A stretch of DNA of 62,527 nt, counting the filler. It is 15 parts of 15 records of this genome, joined end to end, with 100 filler letters (N's around TTAATTAATTAA, not from the genome) between each part and the next. Parts side by side here need not be neighbours in the genome. Positions count along the whole stretch, not along the records: positions 1 to 4,821 come from SRR11831585_1079; 14 more parts are not named here. One strand, written 5' to 3'. How positions within the stretch are numbered: position 1 is the stretch's first letter; each line of letters opens with the position of its first letter. Below are positions 1 through 60,280 of the stretch, piece by piece. The notes below the pieces were generated by a model, which was not told the origin of the DNA, made no database searches, and saw only the letters and a program-made list of their open reading frames with translations. The position numbers and the translations under genes were made by a program.

Positions 1-1128
1 CTCTCGCCACAATTTGTTGACCGCGTAATTGCCCTCCTACCACCCACACTCCCTCTCCAAGTTGCTGCCCCGCTAATCGATGATGAGAGTTTCTGGGAGC
101 GCAGTAGTGTAGCGCGGTGGCGGAACTGCCAGCCGCAGGAGCACGGCAACTCATGGAAGCGGCTGTACCTGGAGAAGCATCTTGCGGAGGCCCTGGAGCA
201 GTACGACTACGCGGGGACAGATGCACAGAACTTTGATACGTTGCTGCGTGTGTGCGCGCCGCACGTGGTGCACCTGAACGTGGGCCAGGTTCTCTCCCGC
301 GTGGACGCACGACGTCTTCTGTCTCTACTGCCGCGGTTGGCCACGCTGCGCATCTGCTACACGGCGCGCAAGGTCGGGATGGACTTTGACTGGTCCATGT
401 TTGGGATGCATGCGGACGATGCGGCACAGCTGGCGGCGGGGTTGAAGGAGACGCGGTCGCTGAGTACGCTGGTGCTGGAGCGGTGCATGCTGGATGATGA
501 GTGTGTGAAGAAGATCAGCGAGGGCATCGCACAGAACAACACACTCACCGTACTGGGTACGTCATGAGCGGTCTCACTTGGTGTTGATGATTTGCGTTGT
601 GCTTACTTGTACGACTGTGTAGATCTCTCACACAACAAGATCACGGACGAAGGTGCCCGTGCCCTCGCCAAAGCCCTCCGCTCCGAGCGCTGTGTGATGC
701 GCCATGTGGACCTCTCAGACAACCAGATCCGCGCCCACGGTGCCAAGGCCCTCGGCATGGCGCTGCGGTCCTCCCCCTCCCTGCGCTGGCTCTTCCTGCG
801 TCTCAACCGGCTCGGTGATGACGGGGCGCACCAGCTGTGTCAGGCCGCAGCACGCAGCCCGGCCCTGGTGGAGCTGTCGATCGCAGCGAACGGCATGACG
901 GGGGCCAGCGTGCCGGATATTGCGTCGCTGATGCAGCGTGTGTCGACACTGACTGCGCTGGACATTTCGTGCAACCCGCTGGGGACGGACAGTGCGCGGG
1001 GGCTGCGGGAGGCGGTGGATGCTTCGCCGCATGTGCGCACGATTGATGTGCGGCAGACCAACATTGCCGTGGATGCAGCTGTGGCGATCACTAGTGCGGT
1101 GCGGCACAGGGGAGTTGCGGCTGAGTAA
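1..1128 (+). CDS. DRC5: Dynein regulatory complex subunit 5 (TCTE1-like LRR protein), 5'-partial; exons <1-556 and 623-1128
   Basis: Frame 1 reads LPLQVAAPLIDDESFWERSSVARW...HGNSWKRLYLEKHL and VGMDFDWSMFG, followed by RI-type LRRs (LDLSHNKITDEGARALA, LRLNRLGDDGA), matching TCTE1/DRC5. GT-AG intron 557-622 restores the frame. Indicates a flagellated eukaryote. Confidence 0.9.
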
Positions 1129-1343
1129 CCTGTTCTTGCTTATGTGACTTGCTCAATTGTATGAAAATGTGCTTTCGATAACCTCGAGTGCTAGTTGATG
1201 TATTCGCTGATAAGAAAAATATATATATACGCGGACTGCAGCCACTGTACCCGTTACTACGGGTCGTGGTGGCGTGCTCGCTTTGACGACATTTGATGTT
1301 ACTAGCGCACCTCTGATGAGCAGATTCGTGATCGCCTTGCATA

Positions 1344-2099
1344 CTACGGTAACCCTGCACAACTCAGCTCCGTAGAATGTCCTTGATTGCCGGGCTTGCA
1401 TCGAATGCGCCTGTTTCCGAACCACGTGCTGATTTGCGAGACTGTGAGCCCACATACAGCGGCAAGCTCCTCTTTCTGCGTGTCGCTCGGATACTACACA
1501 TGCTATTGTGAGGGTTGTCGCGAAAGGAAGTACGAAGACCATCACCGTCTAATCAGCGTATGGTACTCATTTTTCACGCAGAACAACCGTACCATGTTGG
1601 CTTCAAAAAATCGGTTGAGGATCCCGGTTACATGCTTTGAAAATACGCGACGACGACCTGCCAAAGATGACGCTGGTTTGAATCGTAGCGAAGCCTCCAC
1701 ACGCTTCAGAATAGTCAGCTGTAACAGCAATAGTCCTTTGAGCACCGGCTGATCACATTGTTCGTGCGCGAGAGTAAGTCTGGTTACAGCCTCTGTTGCA
1801 CGATGCAGAATTTGGCTTGATCGATTTTTCACGTCGGGTCTATCCAGTATTCTCGGATCTAACGCGGGGATTGGAAACGCAGTCGCACTTTGCTGTGTTG
1901 CTTCCATAAACATGAAATGCAAAGATTCCAGAGATAGCGAATAGTCTGAGTCAGTATGTGGGTGTGGTGTATCGCTCCACAACGTAAAAGTATCCTCAAG
2001 ATTGACGCTGTGAGGAACAATGCATGCTTGTCCATCATCGACAGATTGACAGCGATTTTTCAACATAACGGTGTACCCTTTCAGCTTTGGATACGTCAT
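1344..2099 (-). CDS. Homeodomain protein with PBX-like recognition helix, about 218 aa; exons 2099-1593 and 1493-1344
   Basis: Splicing the phase-0 intron GTACGG...TGTAG (1592-1494) gives [55 protein letters not shown]. Compare PBX RRNFNKQATEILNEYF...[33 protein letters not shown]. First in-frame ATG is at 2099 and the TAG stop is at 1346-1344. Confidence 0.88.
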
Positions 2100-2302
2100 T
2101 GTCCGCTCCAGCACGCAAATTATTCGCCGAATACGACGATGTATAATCGAATTCCTGAACAGAAAAATCAATCTGTCTAACAACTTTTCATGTCTATATA
2201 AGGATGCGTACAGCTTTACAAAAGTGACGTCCGTAGAAGACCACCGTAAGACTTCTGGCCAAGCATTCGAGCCAAGCAGTTAGCAATCGGAAACTGATCA
2301 GT
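2100..2302. promoter_or_regulatory. Putative bidirectional promoter between the two homeobox genes
   Basis: 203 bp separate the divergent ATGs. CTATATAAG at about 2193-2201 lies almost centrally and is TATA-like on both strands. Confidence 0.5.
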
Positions 2303-2986
2303 ATGACCTATCCGAACCGAATATCATACAGAGTTACACGCCCCACCACTGTACAACCAAGCACAACTTCAGGACGCTCCTTTCCGCTGGTATTGCAAAC
2401 TAGTACATCGCTGCGGGATCAGTGTTCAGGGGGCTTCAAGGATGACGTGCTTCAGCAGGTTCTCAAATCCCCACTCGATGCAAAAGCAGTAGAGGATATC
2501 CTGCGCCAGCTGCAACATGAGGTTTTAAGCTCCAGCGGAGACAAAAGGTTAGGTTTAATTATCACTGTCGTTCGCGAATGGCTCGATGCGTTGCGTGACC
2601 CGATCTGTCAGTATACGGATGCAGTCCTCAAAGCGGTCATGGAACAAGTCAAGGAGATAAATGCATTTTCTCCCTGCGAGAAGCGATCGACCGAAGATTC
2701 TGATGAATCGCCGAAGCGTCGTGGCAAGCTCCCCGCTAAGGGCACTCGAGTCCTGCGCGAGTGGGTGGATGCACATCTGTCCGATCCGTACCCCAACGAG
2801 GAGGAGAAGCTGCAGCTAGCGGCGCAGTCGGGCCTCACGCTGCACCAGCTCTCGCACTGGTTCATCAACATCCGGCGCCGCTACGTGCACCCGCTGCTCA
2901 ACCGGCAGCAGACGGCGCTTGGGGACGCACAGGCGCATGATGGGTCGTCGCAAGAGCTGCAGGCGGCCGATGGGATGGGGGCATGA
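2303..2986 (+). CDS. TALE-class homeodomain protein (MEIS/KNOX/TGIF-type helix 3), 227 aa
   Basis: KRRGKLPAKGTRVLREWVDAHLSDPYPNEEEKLQLAAQSGLTLHQLSHWFINIRRRY has the three-residue loop extension, PYP and WFIN (I50). An apparently amphipathic helical region lies upstream. Start codon is predicted. Confidence 0.93.
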   Translation: MTYPNRISYRVTRPTTVQPSTTSGRSFPLVLQTSTSLRDQCSGGFKDDVLQQVLKSPLDAKAVEDILRQLQHEVLSSSGDKRLGLIITVVREWLDALRDPICQYTDAVLKAVMEQVKEINAFSPCEKRSTEDSDESPKRRGKLPAKGTRVLREWVDAHLSDPYPNEEEKLQLAAQSGLTLHQLSHWFINIRRRYVHPLLNRQQTALGDAQAHDGSSQELQAADGMGA

Positions 2987-3171
2987 TGGCCGACCCGCTC
3001 AGTGACGGCTTCTCGCCCGGGTGCGCAGACGTGTAAAGACTGCATGGGTGAGGGGAATGTGTGCACATAATAGTTGTTACAAGCAGGGAAGCTTGTTGTG
3101 GATGATATGGTGCAACGATGCAGTGAATGTTCTGATGACACACACGAGGCCGAGCTGCACATGTTTATTGC

Positions 3172-4001
3172 TTATGCGACGAGCTCGTAGGGGATGGCGT
3201 GCAGGTCCTCAGGGGCGTACTTCTTGGCGCGCACAAAGTGGGCGAGCTTGGGCTGCGTGGGCACCCGTTGGATGACTGTACAACCGCGTTACATTGCAGT
3301 TCACACAGAATGATGGCACAAAGCATGCACAAACATTTACAGTTCCCCACTCCAAACACATATATGTGCAACTCACTACAGTTACAGAGAGAGCATATAT
3401 GCAGAACGGATCCCCTCAATCACACAAAGCACACACGCACAAACAACGCCACTGATTTGCCCAAGCAAAATAGCAGCCTGCATACACACAGCCCTATATG
3501 AAGAATGCTACCCAACGAATTCAGTGACACAAACGCATACAACGCTTCTCACACAAAGTACGTACAGTCAGCCTTGACACCCGCCTTGCCGGCAACCGCG
3601 GCGCGGGCCTCTGTGTTGTGCTTTACGCGCTTGAGGAAATCCTCGCGGCAGCGTGAGGGGTGGACGTGCTCCAAGCGGACGTAGATGCGCTTGTTGAGCA
3701 TGCGCTGGCGAACGCGCTTAGCAACCTCAACACCGACACCGCGGCGAGTAACTGTGAACACGCGACCAGTGCGGCCGTGGTAGTACCGGAAAGGCATACC
3801 CTGAAGAAAAATTAAGCACATGTTCTAGACACAAAGTGAAATTACGACGCACAGCCTGAACGTTGGCGCTGGCCTTGATGTCAACGAAGTCGCGACCCTG
3901 AAGTTGGTCAGGTAAGTCGACAGATGCAGGGGACCGTGGTTCTTGAACCCGCGGCTGAACTTGTGCCGCGTGTTGTTGCGGAGACCTCCAGAGCGACCCA
4001 T
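3172..4001 (-). CDS. RPL21: 60S ribosomal protein L21 (eL21); exons 4001-3853, 3800-3566 and 3275-3172; apparent 1-nt deletion near 3893
   Basis: MGRSGGLRNNTRHKFSRGF...YLTNFRV(G)DFVDIK...QA|GMPFRYYHGRTGRV...KRIYVRLEHVHPSRCREDFLKRVK...IPYELVA*. GT-AG introns at 3852-3801 and 3565-3276, with a probable 5'-UTR intron at 4112-4004. Confidence 0.95.
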
Positions 4002-4312
4002 ATCTAAGACACACAAAAACTTAGAAGACGCAAAATCGAAGTGAATGTCGTCAAGCACTGGGCAACAGTGACAATTTTAACAATCCTACACGAAGTACAG
4101 ATCGCTGCTTACCTTATATCACGTTCACAGCAAAAAGGGAGAGACGATCGAAAGCGGATGCCTTCATTGCGAAACAGCTGGGCTACTACACTGGGACGAA
4201 GTTGCCACGCAGCAACTTCCTCATTTCTCCTCTACACGGCCTGCTATTTTTTCGGGGTCCACTCCACTGCACTAAAAGCTGTGTCTCGAGCCGCGCGTCT
4301 ATTGCGCGTAGA

Positions 4313-4821
4313 ATGACGGAAACGTACGAACCGCGCAAGCCGCAATCACAAGTTCCGTTGGTGTTTTCCAATGATGGCATGTCTTGCTTCATCCCGGCAG
4401 GAAACGAAGTGTTGTGCCTAAGTACCACCACTGGAGAATTGATCTATGCACTGAGCGGTCATACGGATGCTGTAACTGCGATCACCTTGTGCGCATCAGG
4501 TTCACAAATTGCAACCGGCTCCGAGGACACGACTATCAAAATATGGGATGTGCGTGATGGACATCTTTTGAAGGTACTGGATATCGCATTGGTTTGTGTT
4601 CTATGATTTGCTCATTAGGATGACAGTCACATACCGTGGATTACGGCATCTCCCGCATGACGTATGTAACCATGCACAACAATCTTGTGGTCGCGTACAA
4701 CAAGCCGCGCAAAGAAAACGTGAAGCCGCGGTCCTTCATCTCACAAGTATCAGTCAAGACGGGGCGTGTGCAGCTTTTGTTCAAGTGCCGTGGCATTCCT
4801 ACGGGCCTGGTTACCGTAGTC
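4313..4821 (+). CDS. WD40 protein, WDR75/UTP17-like, 3'-partial
   Basis: PLVFSNDG...AGNEVLCLSTTTGELIYALSGHTDAVTAI...IATGSEDTTIKIWDVRDGHLLK resembles the WDR75 N-terminus. An intron follows, and the gene is cut by the spacer. Confidence 0.6.
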
Positions 4822-4921
4822 NNNNNNNNNNNNNNNNNNNNNNNNNNNNNNNNNNNNNNNNNNNNTTAATTAATTAANNNNNNNNNNNNNNNNNNNNNNN
4901 NNNNNNNNNNNNNNNNNNNNN
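4822..4921. other. Artificial contig spacer (first of 14)
   Basis: 44 N + TTAATTAATTAA (stops in all six frames) + 44 N. The same spacer recurs at 9657-9756, 12348-12447, 14466-14565, 16714-16813, 24876-24975, 30740-30839, 35067-35166, 38604-38703, 41168-41267, 43315-43414, 48671-48770, 50882-50981 and 54755-54854. Confidence 0.99.
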
Positions 4922-5280
<359 letters not shown>

Positions 5281-9656: not shown

Positions 9657-10372
9657 NNNNNNNNNNNNNNNNNNNNNNNNNNNNNNNNNNNNNNNNNNNN
9701 TTAATTAATTAANNNNNNNNNNNNNNNNNNNNNNNNNNNNNNNNNNNNNNNNNNNNAACTAGGGTGTTTTTGTTTTGGAGTTGGGGGTGGGGGGAGTGTG
9801 TGATCTTGGTAGATCAGCTGGTAGACGGGCGGAGTATGATGCAGATGCGCCTAGTGTTTTATACACTGTACAACGTTTAGCAACAGACACCCCACCCCGT
9901 TCGTGCTCGCGCTGACTGCCATAGCACGCATCGCAACGCGATTCTGCTTCCACGCAGTCGTTCTCGGAACACCCCCACCCCACCCACCCCAAAACTATCA
10001 AAAATATTGCACCTTACACATTTCGCACGTAACTCCTTTGCTGCTGCTGCAAAAATTAAGCTGGTGTGTGACACGACGGCAAAATAGGAATACGAGACAG
10101 CTTCTGCCCACTGCTCCTCATTCCACTAGTCTCACACCCTTTCTCAAAAACAAAGCCACCGACCCATCTCACAGAATCTCACGCAAAACGCAACACACTC
10201 GCACATCCAACACAGCAAGCCGTACGGGTCACGACTGTGTTGCACTACAGCCCGTACAAGTGAGTAACACAGAAAAAGGAGCATCACGATCGAGCCGCTA
10301 CCGCAGTACCACGCCCGTTCGCAACGCAACCCCCACAACAAAAACCTGACCCACTCCAACCCAGCACCCCCG

Positions 10373-24975: not shown

Positions 24976-25139
24976 CGTACGCGCTCAAACAATTTCAGCC
25001 CGATCACCTTCTCAAAGCGCGCAAGTTCGCGGCTGACGGTTGGCTGTGAGGTGTGTAGCAGGTGTGCCGCCTCAGTCAGGCTTCCGGCGGTCATTACCGC
25101 ATGAAAAATTTCAATATGACGTAAGTTAACGGCGGCCAT
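24976..25139 (-). CDS. lysR: LysR transcriptional activator, 3'-partial
   Basis: MAAVNLRHIEIFHAVMTAGSLTEAAHLLHTSQPTVSRE HTH; divergent from lysA. Confidence 0.97.
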
Positions 25140-25260
25140 TAGCGCTCTCTCGCAATCCGGTAATCCATATCATTTTTGCATAGACTCGACATAAATCGAT
25201 ATTTTTTATTCTTTTTATGATGTGGCGTAATCATAAAAAAGCACTTATCTGGAGTTTGTT

Positions 25261-26523
25261 ATGCCACATTCACTGTTCAGCACCGATACCGATCTCACCG
25301 CCGAAAATCTGCTGCGTTTGCCCGCTGAATTTGGCTGCCCGGTGTGGGTCTACGATGCGCAAATTATTCGTCGGCAGATTGCAGCGCTGAAACAGTTTGA
25401 TGTGGTGCGCTTTGCACAGAAAGCCTGTTCCAATATTCATATTTTGCGCTTAATGCGTGAGCAGGGCGTGAAAGTGGATTCCGTCTCGTTAGGCGAAATA
25501 GAGCGTGCGTTGGCGGCGGGTTACAATCCGCAAACGCACCCCGATGATATTGTTTTTACGGCAGATGTTATCGATCAGGCGACGCTTGAACGCGTCAGTG
25601 AATTGCAAATTCCGGTGAATGCGGGTTCTGTTGATATGCTCGACCAACTGGGCCAGGTTTCGCCAGGGCATCGGGTATGGCTGCGCGTTAATCCGGGGTT
25701 TGGTCACGGACATAGCCAAAAAACCAATACCGGTGGCGAAAACAGCAAGCACGGTATCTGGTACACCGATCTGCCCGCCGCACTGGACGTGATACAACGT
25801 CATCATCTGCAGCTGGTCGGCATTCACATGCACATTGGTTCTGGCGTTGATTATGCCCATCTGGAACAGGTGTGTGGTGCTATGGTGCGTCAGGTCATCG
25901 AATTCGGTCAGGATTTACAGGCTATTTCTGCGGGCGGTGGGCTTTCTGTTCCTTATCAACAGGGTGAAGAGGCGGTTGATACCGAACATTATTATGGTCT
26001 GTGGAATGCCGCGCGTGAGCAAATCGCCCGCCATTTGGGCCACCCTGTGAAACTGGAAATTGAACCGGGTCGCTTCCTGGTAGCGCAGTCTGGCGTATTA
26101 ATTACTCAGGTGCGGAGCGTCAAACAAATGGGGAGCCGCCACTTTGTGCTGGTTGATGCCGGGTTCAACGATCTGATGCGCCCGGCAATGTACGGTAGTT
26201 ACCACCATATCAGTGCCCTGGCAGCTGATGGTCGTTCTCTGGAACACGCGCCAACGGTGGAAACCGTCGTCGCCGGACCGTTATGTGAATCGGGCGATGT
26301 CTTTACCCAGCAGGAAGGGGGAAATGTTGAAACCCGCGCCTTGCCGGAAGTGAAGGCAGGTGATTATCTGGTACTGCATGATACAGGGGCATATGGCGCA
26401 TCAATGTCATCCAACTACAATAGCCGTCCGCTGTTACCAGAAGTTCTGTTTGATAATGGTCAGGCGCGGTTGATTCGCCGTCGCCAGACCATCGAAGAAT
26501 TACTGGCGCTGGAATTGCTTTAA
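25261..26523 (+). CDS. lysA: Diaminopimelate decarboxylase
   Basis: 420 aa with FAQKAC (PLP lysine), HMHIGS, EPGR and GPLCESGD motifs. Confidence 0.99.
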   Translation: MPHSLFSTDTDLTAENLLRLPAEFGCPVWVYDAQIIRRQIAALKQFDVVRFAQKACSNIHILRLMREQGVKVDSVSLGEIERALAAGYNPQTHPDDIVFTADVIDQATLERVSELQIPVNAGSVDMLDQLGQVSPGHRVWLRVNPGFGHGHSQKTNTGGENSKHGIWYTDLPAALDVIQRHHLQLVGIHMHIGSGVDYAHLEQVCGAMVRQVIEFGQDLQAISAGGGLSVPYQQGEEAVDTEHYYGLWNAAREQIARHLGHPVKLEIEPGRFLVAQSGVLITQVRSVKQMGSRHFVLVDAGFNDLMRPAMYGSYHHISALAADGRSLEHAPTVETVVAGPLCESGDVFTQQEGGNVETRALPEVKAGDYLVLHDTGAYGASMSSNYNSRPLLPEVLFDNGQARLIRRRQTIEELLALELL

Positions 26524-26529
26524 CTGCGG

Positions 26530-27561
26530 TTAGTCGCTGGTTGCATGATGACTTGCCTCCAGCGACGGAGTTGACACTGAATGACGACGTACCAGCGTCG
26601 GACTAAAGACATTAGTGATTTCCGGGAGAGGGCGATTATCCGCCAGCGCCAAAGCCAGTTCGGCAGCCTGGGTCGCCATCGTCACGATTGGGTAACGCAC
26701 GGTGGTCAGGCGCGGACGCACATAGCGTGACACCAGCACATCATCAAAGCCAATTAACGAAATCTCACCCGGTACATCAATACCATTATCATTGAGAACG
26801 CCCATCGCACCCGCCGCCATTGAATCGTTATAACAGGCTACCGCAGTGAAATTTCTTCCTCGTCCCAAAAGCTCGGTCATTGCCTGTTCGCCGCCGCTTT
26901 CGTCTGGTTCGCCAAATGTCACCAGCCGGTCATTGGCCGCAATACCACTTTCAGCAAGGGCATCGTAATACCCTTGCAGACGATCTTCGGCGTCAGAAAT
27001 AGAGTGGTTAGAGCACAGATAACCAATGCGGGTATGACCTTGCTGAATTAAATGACGCGTTGCCAGCCAGGCACCGTAACGATCGTCCAGAGCAATACAA
27101 CGGTTTTCAAAGCCAGGCAGGATACGGTTGATCAGCACCATACCGGGCATTTGTTTCATTAATGAGGCTAAATCAGCATCCGGGATCATTTTGGCATGGA
27201 CGACCAACGCAGCACAGCGATGGCGGATCAGTTGCTCAATGGCCTGACGCTCTTTTTGTTCGTTGTGGTAACCGTTGCCAATCAATAAAAAATTACCGGT
27301 GTGATAAGCCACCTGTTCGACCGCTTTCACCATTGCACCGAAAAACGGATCGGAAACATCACCAACGACCAGACCGACCGTTTCAGTGGTCTGCTGCGCC
27401 AGCGCACGGGCGTTGGCGTTCGGGTGATAGCTAAGAGACTCCATTGCACTATGCACAGCCAGCCGGGAAGCTTCGCTGGCTTTGGGTGAATTATTAATGA
27501 CGCGGGAAACGGTGGCGACTGAAACGCCTGCCAGTCGGGCTACATCCTTTATGGTCGCCAT
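26530..27561 (-). CDS. galR: Galactose repressor GalR
   Basis: 343 aa MATIKDVARLAGVSVATVSRVIN, LacI family. Confidence 0.99.
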   Translation of the reverse strand: MATIKDVARLAGVSVATVSRVINNSPKASEASRLAVHSAMESLSYHPNANARALAQQTTETVGLVVGDVSDPFFGAMVKAVEQVAYHTGNFLLIGNGYHNEQKERQAIEQLIRHRCAALVVHAKMIPDADLASLMKQMPGMVLINRILPGFENRCIALDDRYGAWLATRHLIQQGHTRIGYLCSNHSISDAEDRLQGYYDALAESGIAANDRLVTFGEPDESGGEQAMTELLGRGRNFTAVACYNDSMAAGAMGVLNDNGIDVPGEISLIGFDDVLVSRYVRPRLTTVRYPIVTMATQAAELALALADNRPLPEITNVFSPTLVRRHSVSTPSLEASHHATSD

Positions 27562-27774
27562 GAAAATACCTTAGTGGGTAAACGCTTACATTCTTTCAGT
27601 GTTACGGAAAACGCCCGTTGGTTCAAGGGGTGGCGTGTTTTCATCGTGGGAATGTGAGCCAAACGCAAATAAGTAAGACAAAAAAAGAGATTGCAAACCT
27701 TTGGTTACACTTTGCGAAACGCTGTTGCGATTGACCGCTGGTGGCGTTTGGCTTCAGGTTGCTAAAGTGGTGAT

Positions 27775-27856
27775 CCCAGAGGTATTGATAGGTGAAGTCA
27801 ACTTCGGGTTGAGCACATGAATTACACCAGCCTGCGCAGATGCGCAGGTTTTTTTT
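27775..27856 (+). ncRNA. omrB: sRNA OmrB
   Basis: CCCAGAGGTATTGATAGGTGAAG...CCTGCGCAGATGCGCAGGTTTTTTTT. Confidence 0.95.
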
Positions 27857-27970
27857 GCCGGTCATCAATCTGTAACAGTAACCGACAATTTACACACCTC
27901 GTTGCATTTCCCTTCATTCCTTTGCGTTTTCTCGCTGGCGAAGAGTCGTCGTGCAGACCACAATCAAGAT

Positions 27971-28058
27971 CCCAGAGGTATTGATTGGTGAGATTATTCG
28001 GTACGCTCTTCGTACCCTGTCTCTTGCACCAACCTGCGCGGATGCGCAGGTTTTTTTT
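27971..28058 (+). ncRNA. omrA: sRNA OmrA
   Basis: CCCAGAGGTATTGATTGGTGAG...CCTGCGCGGATGCGCAGGTTTTTTTT; paralogue of omrB. Confidence 0.95.
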
Positions 28059-28124
28059 CGCACCTAATTTACTGTCGCTCGCGTTCTTTATCTCGTGTAA
28101 TCTCCCTCCATTCGCTTTTACTGA

Positions 28125-30739
<2,615 letters not shown>

Positions 30740-58296: not shown

Positions 58297-60280
58297 ATGG
58301 CCGCGGTCGCCGGTGTAGAGTATGATGATCTCATTTTTCAAGATCAACCAATGTGCCTGGAGTTCCACCCTCACAACGATGTTATCGCAACTGGATTGAT
58401 CACCGGCAGAATCAGCGTGTGCGTATTTGATTGCACTGTGCGTTCATCCACGTTGTGTACTCAACTTCTGCTCCAGTTCGTTGTATACGCCACAAGGCCA
58501 TCAAAGTGTGCACCAGCTTGATATACTGCAAGATTCCTGCCGCGATATCAAATTTGATGCCAGTGGTCAATGTATGTTCATTCCCTGATTGCGTCGTATT
58601 CTCATTCGTGACTGTAGTTTTATATGCGGCTTCAACGGACAAGAGTCTCACGGCCATTGATCTGAACACGGGTCAAGTTGTTGCACGACAAGAATCAGCG
58701 CATGAGTATGTGTGCTGTGTTGTGCCCGTGTGTCGTTCTATTATGATGTTATGCAGCAGCAGCGCTTGATGCGTTGATTTTCTGGCACCTTGCTGTTGGT
58801 GGTTGTGGAATGGCCTGCTGTGATCTTTGGTTCGCCGGTTTCTTTGTGTTGTTTTGTTGATGAAATGTGCAGTGCCGCTCTGAACTGCCTCAAACGATTG
58901 GATGCCACCACATTAGTTACCGGCGACGATGATGGCGTGATTAAGGTAACAGACACCGCGGTGGATGTATTTCTCAGCCTCTGTGTATCTCTCTCTCCCT
59001 CTGCTTGTCTTATTGTCACGCTTGTGTGTATCTTTTCCTTTGTGCTTTGGACATGTCTCGCGTGGTGGCGGCATCCACTGATTTCCTTTGTCATCTCGCT
59101 TCTTTGGTTTGCATGCGCCATCGTTTGTATGTACGTTCTCTGTGACTCACTATGTGCACGCACACAGCTGTGGGACGTTCGTCGCAAGGGTTGCACGATG
59201 ACGTTCCGCGAAAACGAGGATTACATCTCAGACATGGCCCCCGGAAAGGACGGCCGCTTGTTGCTTGTCACCAGTGGCGACGGTACATTGGTGGTACTTG
59301 ATCTGGTAAAAGGCAAGCTAGAAGCGGCCAGCGACAATCAGGAAGACGAGCTGTTGTCCATCGTGATCTTGAAGGTATTGTCATGCGTTGGATGTGTGGT
59401 TTGTGTTGCACTGGATGCAAGTGGTTGTATGGTAGCGTTCTGCCCGTGTTCTGTTTGTGAGGGGGAGGCCCATGTTGTTCATAGTCCTATTGTGTCTTAT
59501 ATTCTTCGCCCCCGTTCGCTTTTGCATGCGTGTGCTTCTCTCTCCCTCGCACACTGTACTTACTCACTCACTCACTCGCTCGCTCACTCACCCTCTACGC
59601 TGCAACAACAGAACGGCAAGAAAGTGCTGATCGGCACACAGGAAGGCGTGTTGGAAATATTCAACTGGGACTGGTGGGGCGACATGAAAGACCGCATTGT
59701 CGGACACCCGTCCTCGATCGATGCCATGGTGTTACTCGACCAAGACACGGTGCTCACGGGATCCAGCGACGGCCTCATTCGCATCGTGCAGGTGCTGCCG
59801 AATAAATTACTAGGGGTGGTGGGGGACCACGAAGAGTTCCCCATTGAGCGCCTGGCCTTGGATCGCACGGGTAACGTGCTTGGATCGTGCTCGCATGACA
59901 ACTGCGTCAAGTTTTGGGATATCGCGTTTCTGCGCGACACCGCGGAGGGCGACGATGATGATGATGAGGACGAGAACGAACAAGATGAAGCAGGCAGTGA
60001 ATCGATGTCCACCGCGTTCACTGCCACCACGGGCAGTGTGTTACCGGAGCCGCCGCGTCCGCGCAAGCAACGGGACAGTCGCATGAAGGGGTCGGCGGAC
60101 CAGCCGAGCACTGCGGCTGATACGGACTCTGACTCGTTCACGGATACTTCCGATGATGATGATGATGACGATGATGACGATGAGGACAGTGGGAGTGCGC
60201 GACCGCGGGGCAGGAGACAACCGCCGCCGTCGCAACCGCAGCGCAAGGGGAAGAAAGCCAGCTTTTTCGATGATTTGTAG
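58297..60280 (+). CDS. WDR55: WD repeat protein 55 / Jip5 (ribosome biogenesis), multi-exon
   Basis: LEFHPHNDVIATGLITG, LVTGDDDGVIK|LWDVR, ENEDYISDM, TSGDGTL, SDNQEDELLS, LLGVVGDHEEFPIE, acidic tail ending SFFDDL. Confidence 0.92.

Follow-up and report, generated by a model that had tools for sequence, protein, structure and literature searches.

The diploid programme is launched by a heterodimer of two unlike homeodomain proteins in ascomycetes, basidiomycetes, Dictyostelium and the brown, red and green algae (PMC8476127; this article and the others cited below are drawn on for the passages covered), and among the known triggers of the change from haploid to diploid, such pairs of unlike homeodomains are the most widespread. 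In basidiomycetes, divergently transcribed HD1/HD2 pairs define the HD mating loci; clustered homeobox pairs of microsporidia (EcHD-1/EcHD-2 of Encephalitozoon, with Burglin 2003 as the source cited) have been proposed as mating-type loci, and no idiomorphs are reported for the E. cuniculi pair among three isolates (PMC2866331). TALE dyads composed of a MEIS/KNOX-like and a PBC-like member are reported in Naegleria, Apusozoa, Ichthyosporea and choanoflagellates, not in Fungi, and the TALE introns at 44/45 and 48(2/3) are treated there as ancestral (PMC6219170). Whether the ancestral pair was TALE + TALE or TALE + typical is stated to be open, and sampling of excavates and of unicellular relatives of animals is called for (PMC8476127). 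Here we describe, from a flagellated eukaryote, two genes for homeodomain transcription factors that are divergently transcribed and form a compact cassette on the first contig of a 62,527-base window. We tentatively read it, with a probability of about 0.45, as a co-regulated heterodimeric homeodomain switch that possibly regulates itself. As a compact linked pair in a unicellular flagellate, the locus bears on the question of the ancestral pair raised in the passages covered of PMC8476127.

The window, that is, the whole stretch of DNA analysed, is made up of 15 separate contigs of 2.0-8.1 kb, between which stand runs of N around TTAATTAATTAA (4822-4921, 9657-9756 etc.). Physical linkage holds only within one contig, and features lying on different contigs of the window are not linked. 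The homeobox pair lies on the contig at window positions 1-4821 (4,821 bases), which is eukaryotic, and all of the results below rest on these 4.8 kb.

Two unlike homeodomains encoded head-to-head

The cassette comprises the following elements, given in window coordinates.

2303..2986, plus strand: homeobox gene, single exon, 227 aa (ATG at 2303, stop at 2984-2986)
2100..2302, no strand: spacer of 203 bp between the two ATGs, from which the genes diverge head-to-head
1593..2099, minus strand: exon 1 of the second homeobox gene, 169 codons from the ATG at 2099-2097, with an orphan N-terminus of ~146 residues and homeodomain positions 1-24 (~1664-1593)
1494..1592, minus strand: intron of that gene, 99 nt, GTACGG...TGTGTAG, phase 0, GT-AG, as read from the sequence
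1344..1493, minus strand: exon 2, 49 codons (1493-1347) and the stop TAG at 1346-1344, with homeodomain positions 25-60 (helices 2 and 3, WFGNRRIR) and a short tail

A previous reading of this DNA, made from the sequence only, had announced a head-to-head homeobox pair with these coordinates, sizes of 218 and 227 aa and a spacer of 203 bp, and all of these figures are exact.

The protein encoded on the plus strand is built from an orphan N-terminal region of ~136 residues, a 63-residue homeodomain (~2717-2905, WFINIRRR) and a tail of 26 residues. The homeodomain matches the whole Homeobox_KN profile (positions 1-40 of 40) with an E value of 1.2e-15 and contains the three extra residues between helices 1 and 2 that mark the TALE class. 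Its best matches in the PDB, gap-free through the loop, are PKNOX1 (62.4 bits, 5.6e-16) and MEIS2 (62.2 bits, 6.6e-16), followed by TGIF2LX (59.8 bits, with TGIF in the range 50-60) and then by PBX1 (47.8 bits) and Extradenticle (44-48); no plant KNOX or BELL structure is among these matches. Helix 3, WFINIRRR, carries I50, N51 and R53-R55 as in MEIS. The gene encodes a true TALE homeodomain nearest to PKNOX/MEIS, and the MEIS-like character proposed earlier is borne out by some 62 bits for PKNOX1/MEIS against 48 for PBX1; the assignment to the MEIS/PKNOX (MEINOX) class is made from the homeodomain only, with TGIF close behind.

A full HMMER library search with the plus-strand protein among 1.84 billion representatives returned 7058 proteins at an E value of 1e-3 or better, and in each of the best 150 of these 7058 the best stretch covers the homeodomain (150/150). 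The ten closest homeodomains among the library matches listed are spread over moths, a myxomycete and a mucoromycote fungus and hence are no guide to the organism. Two of the closest ones listed (P0140 and P0057) belong to small proteins of 218 and 229 aa from the mucoromycote Calcarisporiella thermophila, which have the same layout of a long N-terminus and a near C-terminal TALE homeodomain and are encoded on different contigs.

The homeodomain of the minus-strand gene is divided between its two exons. By itself, exon 2 gives E values of 1.1e-11 with Homeobox_KN and 2.1e-09 with Homeodomain, and the end of exon 1 has the pattern of a basic arm and helix 1 and aligns to a TALE profile that was built from the 318 homeodomain stretches of the best 150 of the 7058 library matches. 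Against this profile the spliced protein of 218 aa scores 49.8 bits (profile positions 1-55), as compared with 3.8 bits for the unspliced reading. Read in frame, the intron contains stops, and the unspliced open reading frame ends at 1542. Donor and acceptor resemble those of other introns on the contig (GTACGT...TGTGTAG in DRC5, GTACGT in RPL21). An in-frame TAG stands immediately 5' of exon 2, and GT is absent 3, 6 and 9 nt past the donor; the 99-nt intron is therefore the only canonical GT-AG solution. That the gene is spliced through one intron inside its homeodomain, as the sequence-only reading had put it, thus appears well founded on the gene model. A longer splice form that would restore the TALE loop was looked for and none exists with GT-AG borders.

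With regard to its class, exon 2 is closest in the PDB to Extradenticle (45.9 bits, 2.8e-11) and PBX1 (45.5 bits, 3.8e-11), with DUX4 (32.4 bits), MEIS (25.9 bits, 8e-05) and yeast mating-type (MAT) protein a1 (24.5 bits, 2.2e-04) as weaker matches; the nominal top row is a designed repeat protein in which no stretch passes alone, and it is not counted. Helix 3, WFGNRRIR, has G50, N51, R53, I54 and R55 as in PBX, and both this PBX-type recognition helix (WFGN[KR]RIR, with G50) and helix 2 are those of the PBC class. The TALE loop itself is absent: a three-column gap opens both against the TALE profile and against the neighbouring plus-strand protein, and the intron, between homeodomain positions 24 and 25, lies at the exact place of the three extra TALE residues. 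Typical homeodomains are 60 residues long. From its deduced sequence the minus-strand protein is therefore not a TALE protein; it has a PBX/Extradenticle-like homeodomain of the ordinary 60-residue length, which either lost the loop at the intron boundary or never had it. The earlier assignment as PBX-like stands as far as the nearest homeodomains are concerned (46 bits for Extradenticle/PBX1 as compared with 26 for MEIS) and falls with respect to TALE membership, the three loop residues being gone.

Since the plus-strand gene encodes a TALE homeodomain and the minus-strand one lacks the loop, the pair is TALE + typical length, like fungal HD1/HD2 and yeast alpha2/a1, and not TALE + TALE like MEIS-PBX or KNOX-BELL. 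The two homeodomains are 51.6% identical over 31 residues and the N-termini resemble each other at the level of shuffled sequences, in agreement with the description of the genes as dissimilar.

The N-terminal halves and the shared 5' region

Upstream of the homeodomains the frames are open for ~136 and 146 codons in DNA of ~48% GC, for which we estimate a chance of ~1e-3 each. Exon 1 of the minus-strand gene has no Pfam family and no PDB sequence match at E 10, neither PBC-A nor PBC-B being found. A word-index homologue search gave no scoring relative for the plus-strand protein (351 candidates) or for minus exon 1 (54 candidates); the two N-termini have no relatives among the best 150 of the 7058 matches of the plus-strand protein (best E values 0.3 and 1.8); and metagenome scans with the plus-strand protein and with minus exon 2 yielded 387 and 598 pattern matches, respectively, none of which was confirmed. 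Nor are the N-termini alike, as their local alignment score of 31 compares with 28.4 +/- 4.9 for shuffles and is reached by 140 of 500 of them. AlphaFold2 run without an alignment predicts that four helices precede the homeodomain of the plus-strand protein and several that of the minus-strand protein, with a predicted local distance difference test (pLDDT) value under 55. In a protein atlas, the nearest cluster to minus exon 1 is automatically named 'Homeodomain transcription factor HD1 (Fragment)' (0.86, with 172 of 256 features shared), and the plus N-terminus falls nearest to the same cluster at 0.79; this cluster is mostly from Basidiomycota, with Mating_N on 19% of its members, and atlas scores under 0.9 are leads only.

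Both proteins begin with MTYP....Y.V over their first eleven residues (2303-2335 on the plus strand and 2099-2067 on the minus strand), and the two ATGs share an A..ATGAC context. This common start may be a shared N-terminal signal or the vestige of an inverted duplication. A recent inverted duplication is ruled out by the dissimilar N-termini and by the lack of an inverted repeat joining the genes.

Complex prediction was run for residues 1-140 of the plus-strand protein with residues 1-150 of the minus-strand protein, as one job with three runs and three controls. The interaction prediction score from aligned errors (ipSAE) was 0.53, 0.60 and 0.63 (median 0.60), the best of the three controls reaching 0.00; the runs share at least 53% of their contacts, the pLDDT of the partner is at least 56, and the verdict is 'weak support'. 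In the calibration of this score, 51 of 78 solved complexes reach the mark, as do 2 of 108 mismatched pairs. At 0.60 or under stand only 5 of the 78, together with every one of the 4 passing mismatches (of 180), and 7 of 44 blind neighbour pairs also reach the mark. As the prior for binding is already raised by the complementary classes of the homeodomains, we take the score as a modest push towards binding. The N-termini may thus bind each other, and the interaction suspected in the sequence-only reading is weakly supported by the median of 0.60 against 0.00 in the controls.

The 203-bp spacer is presumed to be a bidirectional promoter. Near its centre, at 2195-2202, is a TATA element, TATATAAG, with a distance of ~100 bp to either ATG. 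A weak two-fold symmetry relates the halves of the spacer when the gene starts are included (score -15 as compared with -36.7 +/- 5.8 for shuffles, the best of 300 shuffles also giving -15). The following sites, named by their resemblance to the animal consensus, surround the start of the minus-strand gene.

1999..2177, no strand: cluster of PBX-PREP/MEIS-like sites
2040-2049 (plus) and 2168-2177 (minus): GACAGATTGA, an inverted pair around the minus ATG
1999-2006 and 2043-2050: AGATTGAC
2167-2174 (minus): AGATTGAT

The consensus of animal PREP1-PBX1 is given as the decamer TGATTGACAG and the octamer TGATTGAT (PMC5240567). The first copy of GACAGATTGA runs into AGATTGACAG, a 9/10 match to TGATTGACAG, and the second contains AGATTGAT, a 7/8 match to TGATTGAT. 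This ten-mer occurs twice in the 62.5-kb window, where 0.14 copies are expected, and none of 100 shuffles contained two or more; the degenerate WGATTGAY is found 8 times in the window against 9.2 expected, 3 of the 8 being inside 176 bp at the locus. Such a cluster would be expected at a locus regulated by its own PBX-like/MEIS-like pair.

The composition of the coding sequence changes across the locus. The GC content at third codon positions (GC3) is 0.74-0.78 in DRC5 and 0.71-0.79 in RPL21, the genes on either side, 0.43 in the N-terminal coding part of the minus-strand gene (exon 1) and 0.59 in its exon 2; in the plus-strand gene it is 0.50 over the N-terminal part and climbs abruptly, being 0.81 from where the homeodomain begins. 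The stretch of low GC3, ~1500-2710, thus takes in the spacer and both N-terminal coding halves. By analogy, this could reflect reduced recombination, as in the variable core of fungal HD loci, or else weak codon selection on fast-evolving sequence. A nearby WD40 exon is also low, at 0.52, and hence little weight is placed on the low GC3 of the pair.

The contig and its neighbouring genes

The order of genes on the contig is DRC5 (plus), homeobox (minus), homeobox (plus), RPL21 (minus) and a WD40 gene (plus), with ~200 bp between adjacent genes, so that the contig is gene-dense. The two immediate neighbours are as follows.

1..1128, plus strand: DRC5 (dynein regulatory complex subunit 5), left neighbour, 5' end cut by the end of the contig, stop at 1126-1128
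3172..4001, minus strand: RPL21 (ribosomal protein L21e), right neighbour, with introns and an apparent 1-nt frame break near 3893

DRC5, which has an intron of 66 nt at 557-622 as read from the sequence, was identified by two colinear matches to the PDB chain 8glv_Ez, 'DRC5' (2.8e-38, query 3-183 against chain 33-214, and 2.3e-32, 1-162 against 218-378). It also matches LRR_6 at 6.7e-19, and the word-index homologue search with this fragment gave one match only, which has no name. RPL21 matches Ribosomal_L21e at 5.8e-19 (3821-3552) and 1.3e-06 (4001-3903). Both flanking genes had been named correctly from the letters alone, and the description of the organism as flagellated fits the DRC5 gene: DRC5 is axonemal, and its presence means that the organism builds motile cilia. 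In exon 1 of RPL21 (~3886-3900, minus strand) the frame breaks after ...LTNFRV and the expected continuation, DFVDIKASANVQ, is found in a different frame, which would fit the loss of one base near 3893. An indel of the assembly is the probable cause, and other frames of the contig could carry like errors.

Elsewhere in the window, the last contig holds an open frame of 500 residues (58778-60277, plus strand) that matches the WDR55 beta-propeller family at 6.1e-70, an ordinary eukaryotic gene; this contig probably comes from the same organism as the homeobox contig. Scanning the long open frames of the GC-rich contigs with Pfam gave no hint of their taxonomy. Some contigs of the window are bacterial. 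Positions 26000-29000, within 24976-30739, are 100% identical to E. coli chromosomes (galR-aas-lysA), and the only Rfam match is the enterobacterial OmrA/B, with two small RNAs at 27775-28058 on this E. coli contig. Positions 4922-5000 match a bacterial genome (G001) at 88%. The bacterial contigs could stem from a food bacterium or from contamination of the assembly, and the label 'bacterivorous' given to the organism draws solely on the E. coli contigs of the same window.

Explanations of the pair and comparison with known systems

According to the reading that we favour, both genes would be co-regulated from the shared 203-bp spacer with its central TATA element, and their helical, lineage-specific N-terminal halves would bind each other. 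The resulting heterodimer would read composite TGAT-TGACAG-like sites, including the cluster at its own 5' region (autoregulation), and the pair would act as a cell-state switch, most plausibly for a haploid-to-diploid or zygote programme of the kind that such pairs control in fungi, Dictyostelium and the green and brown algae. The complementary classes of the homeodomains (PKNOX1/MEIS2 for the plus strand and Extradenticle/PBX1 for the minus strand) count in favour of a heterodimer, and the long open N-terminal frames, the predicted complex of the N-termini, the clustered PBX-PREP/MEIS-like sites and the symmetry about the TATA element are also taken in support of the switch. Several observations weigh against this reading. 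At E 10, Pfam detects none of PBC, Meis_PKNOX_N, KNOX1/2, ELK, POX and Mating_N in either N-terminus, that is, no dimerisation domain: of the families named in the sequence-only reading, Homeobox_KN and Homeodomain were matched and PBC, Meis_PKNOX_N and KNOX1/2 were not. The plus-strand protein accordingly has no MEINOX domain in the form of Meis_PKNOX_N or of KNOX1/KNOX2, and the domains of the KNOX/BELL dyad (KNOX1, KNOX2, ELK, POX) are found in neither protein at this threshold. A likeness of the plus N-terminus to MEINOX, in the colinear FPL...C and L.DP.C.Y...LK, is seen by eye only, and the hhalign score of 12.5 against an alignment of MEINOX domains (20 stretches, taken from the 17 of the best 150 library matches that have a MEINOX-type N-terminus) is reached by 8 of 30 shuffles. 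Single-sequence AlphaFold2 models of the two proteins have a mean pLDDT of 50.9 and 42.6 and are poor outside the homeodomain, and the complex score lies in a band that is more often wrong than right unless the pairing is likely beforehand. As to the DNA, the motif was picked post hoc, after inspection of the sequence, so that its statistics overstate the case; two of the PBX-PREP/MEIS-like sites are inside coding sequence; and TGACAG by itself shows no enrichment in the window (42 as compared with 38.4 expected).

The same observations may be accounted for by two independent factors that are merely adjacent, perhaps as remnants of an old inverted duplication or as chance neighbours in a compact genome, and that act alone or with partners encoded elsewhere. 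We consider this possible, if doubtful. It agrees with the lack of a recognisable dimerisation domain and with the gene density of the contig, where gaps of ~200 bp make head-to-head neighbours common; the MTYP start and the equal spacing of the TATA element would fit an inverted duplication, which explains the linkage without any partnership, and blind neighbour pairs reach the mark of the complex prediction in 7 of 44 cases. On the other hand, the homeodomains are of two classes that partner in animals, all three controls of the complex prediction gave 0.00 against 0.60, composite heterodimer-like sites cluster at the locus, and the proteins are too diverged for a recent duplicate. It is very improbable that the minus-strand gene is decaying or mis-modelled and that only the TALE gene on the plus strand is functional. 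The three-residue deletion exactly at the intron, the GC3 of 0.43 in exon 1 and a contig with at least one probable indel error (in RPL21) could be taken that way, but 218 codons are open across a canonical GT-AG intron in the right phase, the conserved homeodomain residues visible in the alignments are all present, the 60-residue homeodomain has the typical length and exon 2 matches Homeobox_KN at 1.1e-11.

By analogy with basidiomycetes, the cassette might instead be one of several haplotypes of a self/non-self mating locus with differing N-termini, in which the proteins of one haplotype would not bind and the TALE and typical proteins from different haplotypes would dimerise after cell fusion and turn on the diploid programme. 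The architecture is that of HD1/HD2, namely a divergent TALE-type and typical gene with long N-termini before the homeodomain; both N-termini are nearest to the 'HD1 (Fragment)' cluster (0.86 and 0.79, as leads only) and are without detectable relatives, as would be expected for fast-evolving recognition domains, and their low GC3 (0.43 and 0.50) could reflect suppressed recombination. We nevertheless judge such a locus unlikely. The N-termini of the same haplotype are predicted, with weak support, to bind, whereas self-incompatibility would require the reverse. No match to Pfam Mating_N was detected, and the low GC3 is not unique to the pair (0.52 in the WD40 exon). The window covers a single haplotype, with no second copy; the adjacent pair of microsporidia proposed as MAT, which it resembles, shows no idiomorphs in three isolates in the passages covered of PMC2866331. 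Because the predicted binders are encoded on the same DNA, we incline to an obligate, co-expressed pair and not to self-incompatible alleles. Further-reaching, and in our view a long shot, is the proposal that a non-fungal flagellate here has a switch of the fungal HD1/HD2 type for sexual identity or the zygote. It would consist of a TALE protein and a loop-less PBX-like one, arisen by inverted duplication and still with a shared promoter, start motif and autoregulatory sites, and its fast-evolving N-termini would tell self from non-self. If this were true, the divergent TALE + typical layout would either be ancestral for much of the eukaryotes or represent a striking case of convergence, and the locus would be a candidate mating-type locus for a protist lineage without known sexual genetics.

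The locus is a good lead and not a demonstrated system. Should the proteins bind and be tied to sex or the zygote, as the switch reading would have it, the locus would form a link between MEIS-PBX of animals, KNOX-BELL of algae and HD1-HD2 of fungi, show a TALE protein becoming 'typical' via a deletion at an intron boundary and provide a testable candidate mating or life-cycle locus; should they not bind, these are simply two adjacent transcription-factor genes. With regard to novelty, the earlier statement that no such linked pair is known to be described in a flagellated bacterivorous protist has to be narrowed: dyads of MEIS/KNOX-like and PBC-like proteins have already been reported in protists (PMC6219170, passages covered), and the novelty, if any, would lie in how the genes are linked, head-to-head, and in the loop-less PBX-like partner, and not in there being a pair of this kind. 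No head-to-head TALE/PBX-like pair in a protist was found in the literature searched, which takes in PMC6219170 apart from its supplementary protist sequences.

A similar arrangement is found in the basidiomycete HD1/HD2 loci (bE/bW of Ustilago, A of Coprinopsis), in which a TALE-type and a typical gene also diverge from a short spacer and a long N-terminal region, which mediates dimerisation in these fungi, precedes the homeodomain (PMC2866331 and PMC8476127, passages covered). On the other hand, the proteins described here are much shorter (218 and 227 aa), and their typical-length member has a PBX-like recognition helix, with no match to Mating_N. A further difference is the presence of DRC5 and thus of motile cilia, which Dikarya do not have. 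Adjacent homeobox genes outside Dikarya, one typical and one TALE, are shared with the microsporidian pair, likened here by its description only. The combination TALE + typical is also that of yeast MATalpha2/a1 and Cryptococcus Sxi1alpha/Sxi2a, whose heterodimer marks the diploid or zygote state (PMC8476127, passages covered); their genes are in different idiomorphs, one per mating type, whereas here both are on one DNA molecule, and MAT a1 is a far weaker match to minus exon 2 than PBX (24.5 as compared with 46 bits). Two unlike homeodomain proteins are likewise found in GSP1/GSM1 of Chlamydomonas (BELL/KNOX) and ORO/SAM of Ectocarpus, whose heterodimer starts the diploid programme (PMC8476127 and PMC6368402, passages covered); there, the two partners are both of the TALE class and have KNOX or PBL/BELL-type domains, whereas one of the two is non-TALE here, without KNOX1/2 or ELK. 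In the passages covered, neither the animal nor the algal partner genes are described as a head-to-head pair, and the intron of the minus-strand gene, at 24/25, differs in position from the TALE introns treated as ancestral in PMC6219170. Compared with the animal MEIS/PREP-PBX system, no MEINOX or PBC domain is detectable here and the PBX-like member is without the TALE loop. It is nevertheless with this system that the homeodomain classes match best, PKNOX1/MEIS on the plus strand and Extradenticle/PBX1 on the minus strand, and sites near the PREP-PBX consensus TGATTGACAG / TGATTGAT are present at the locus itself.

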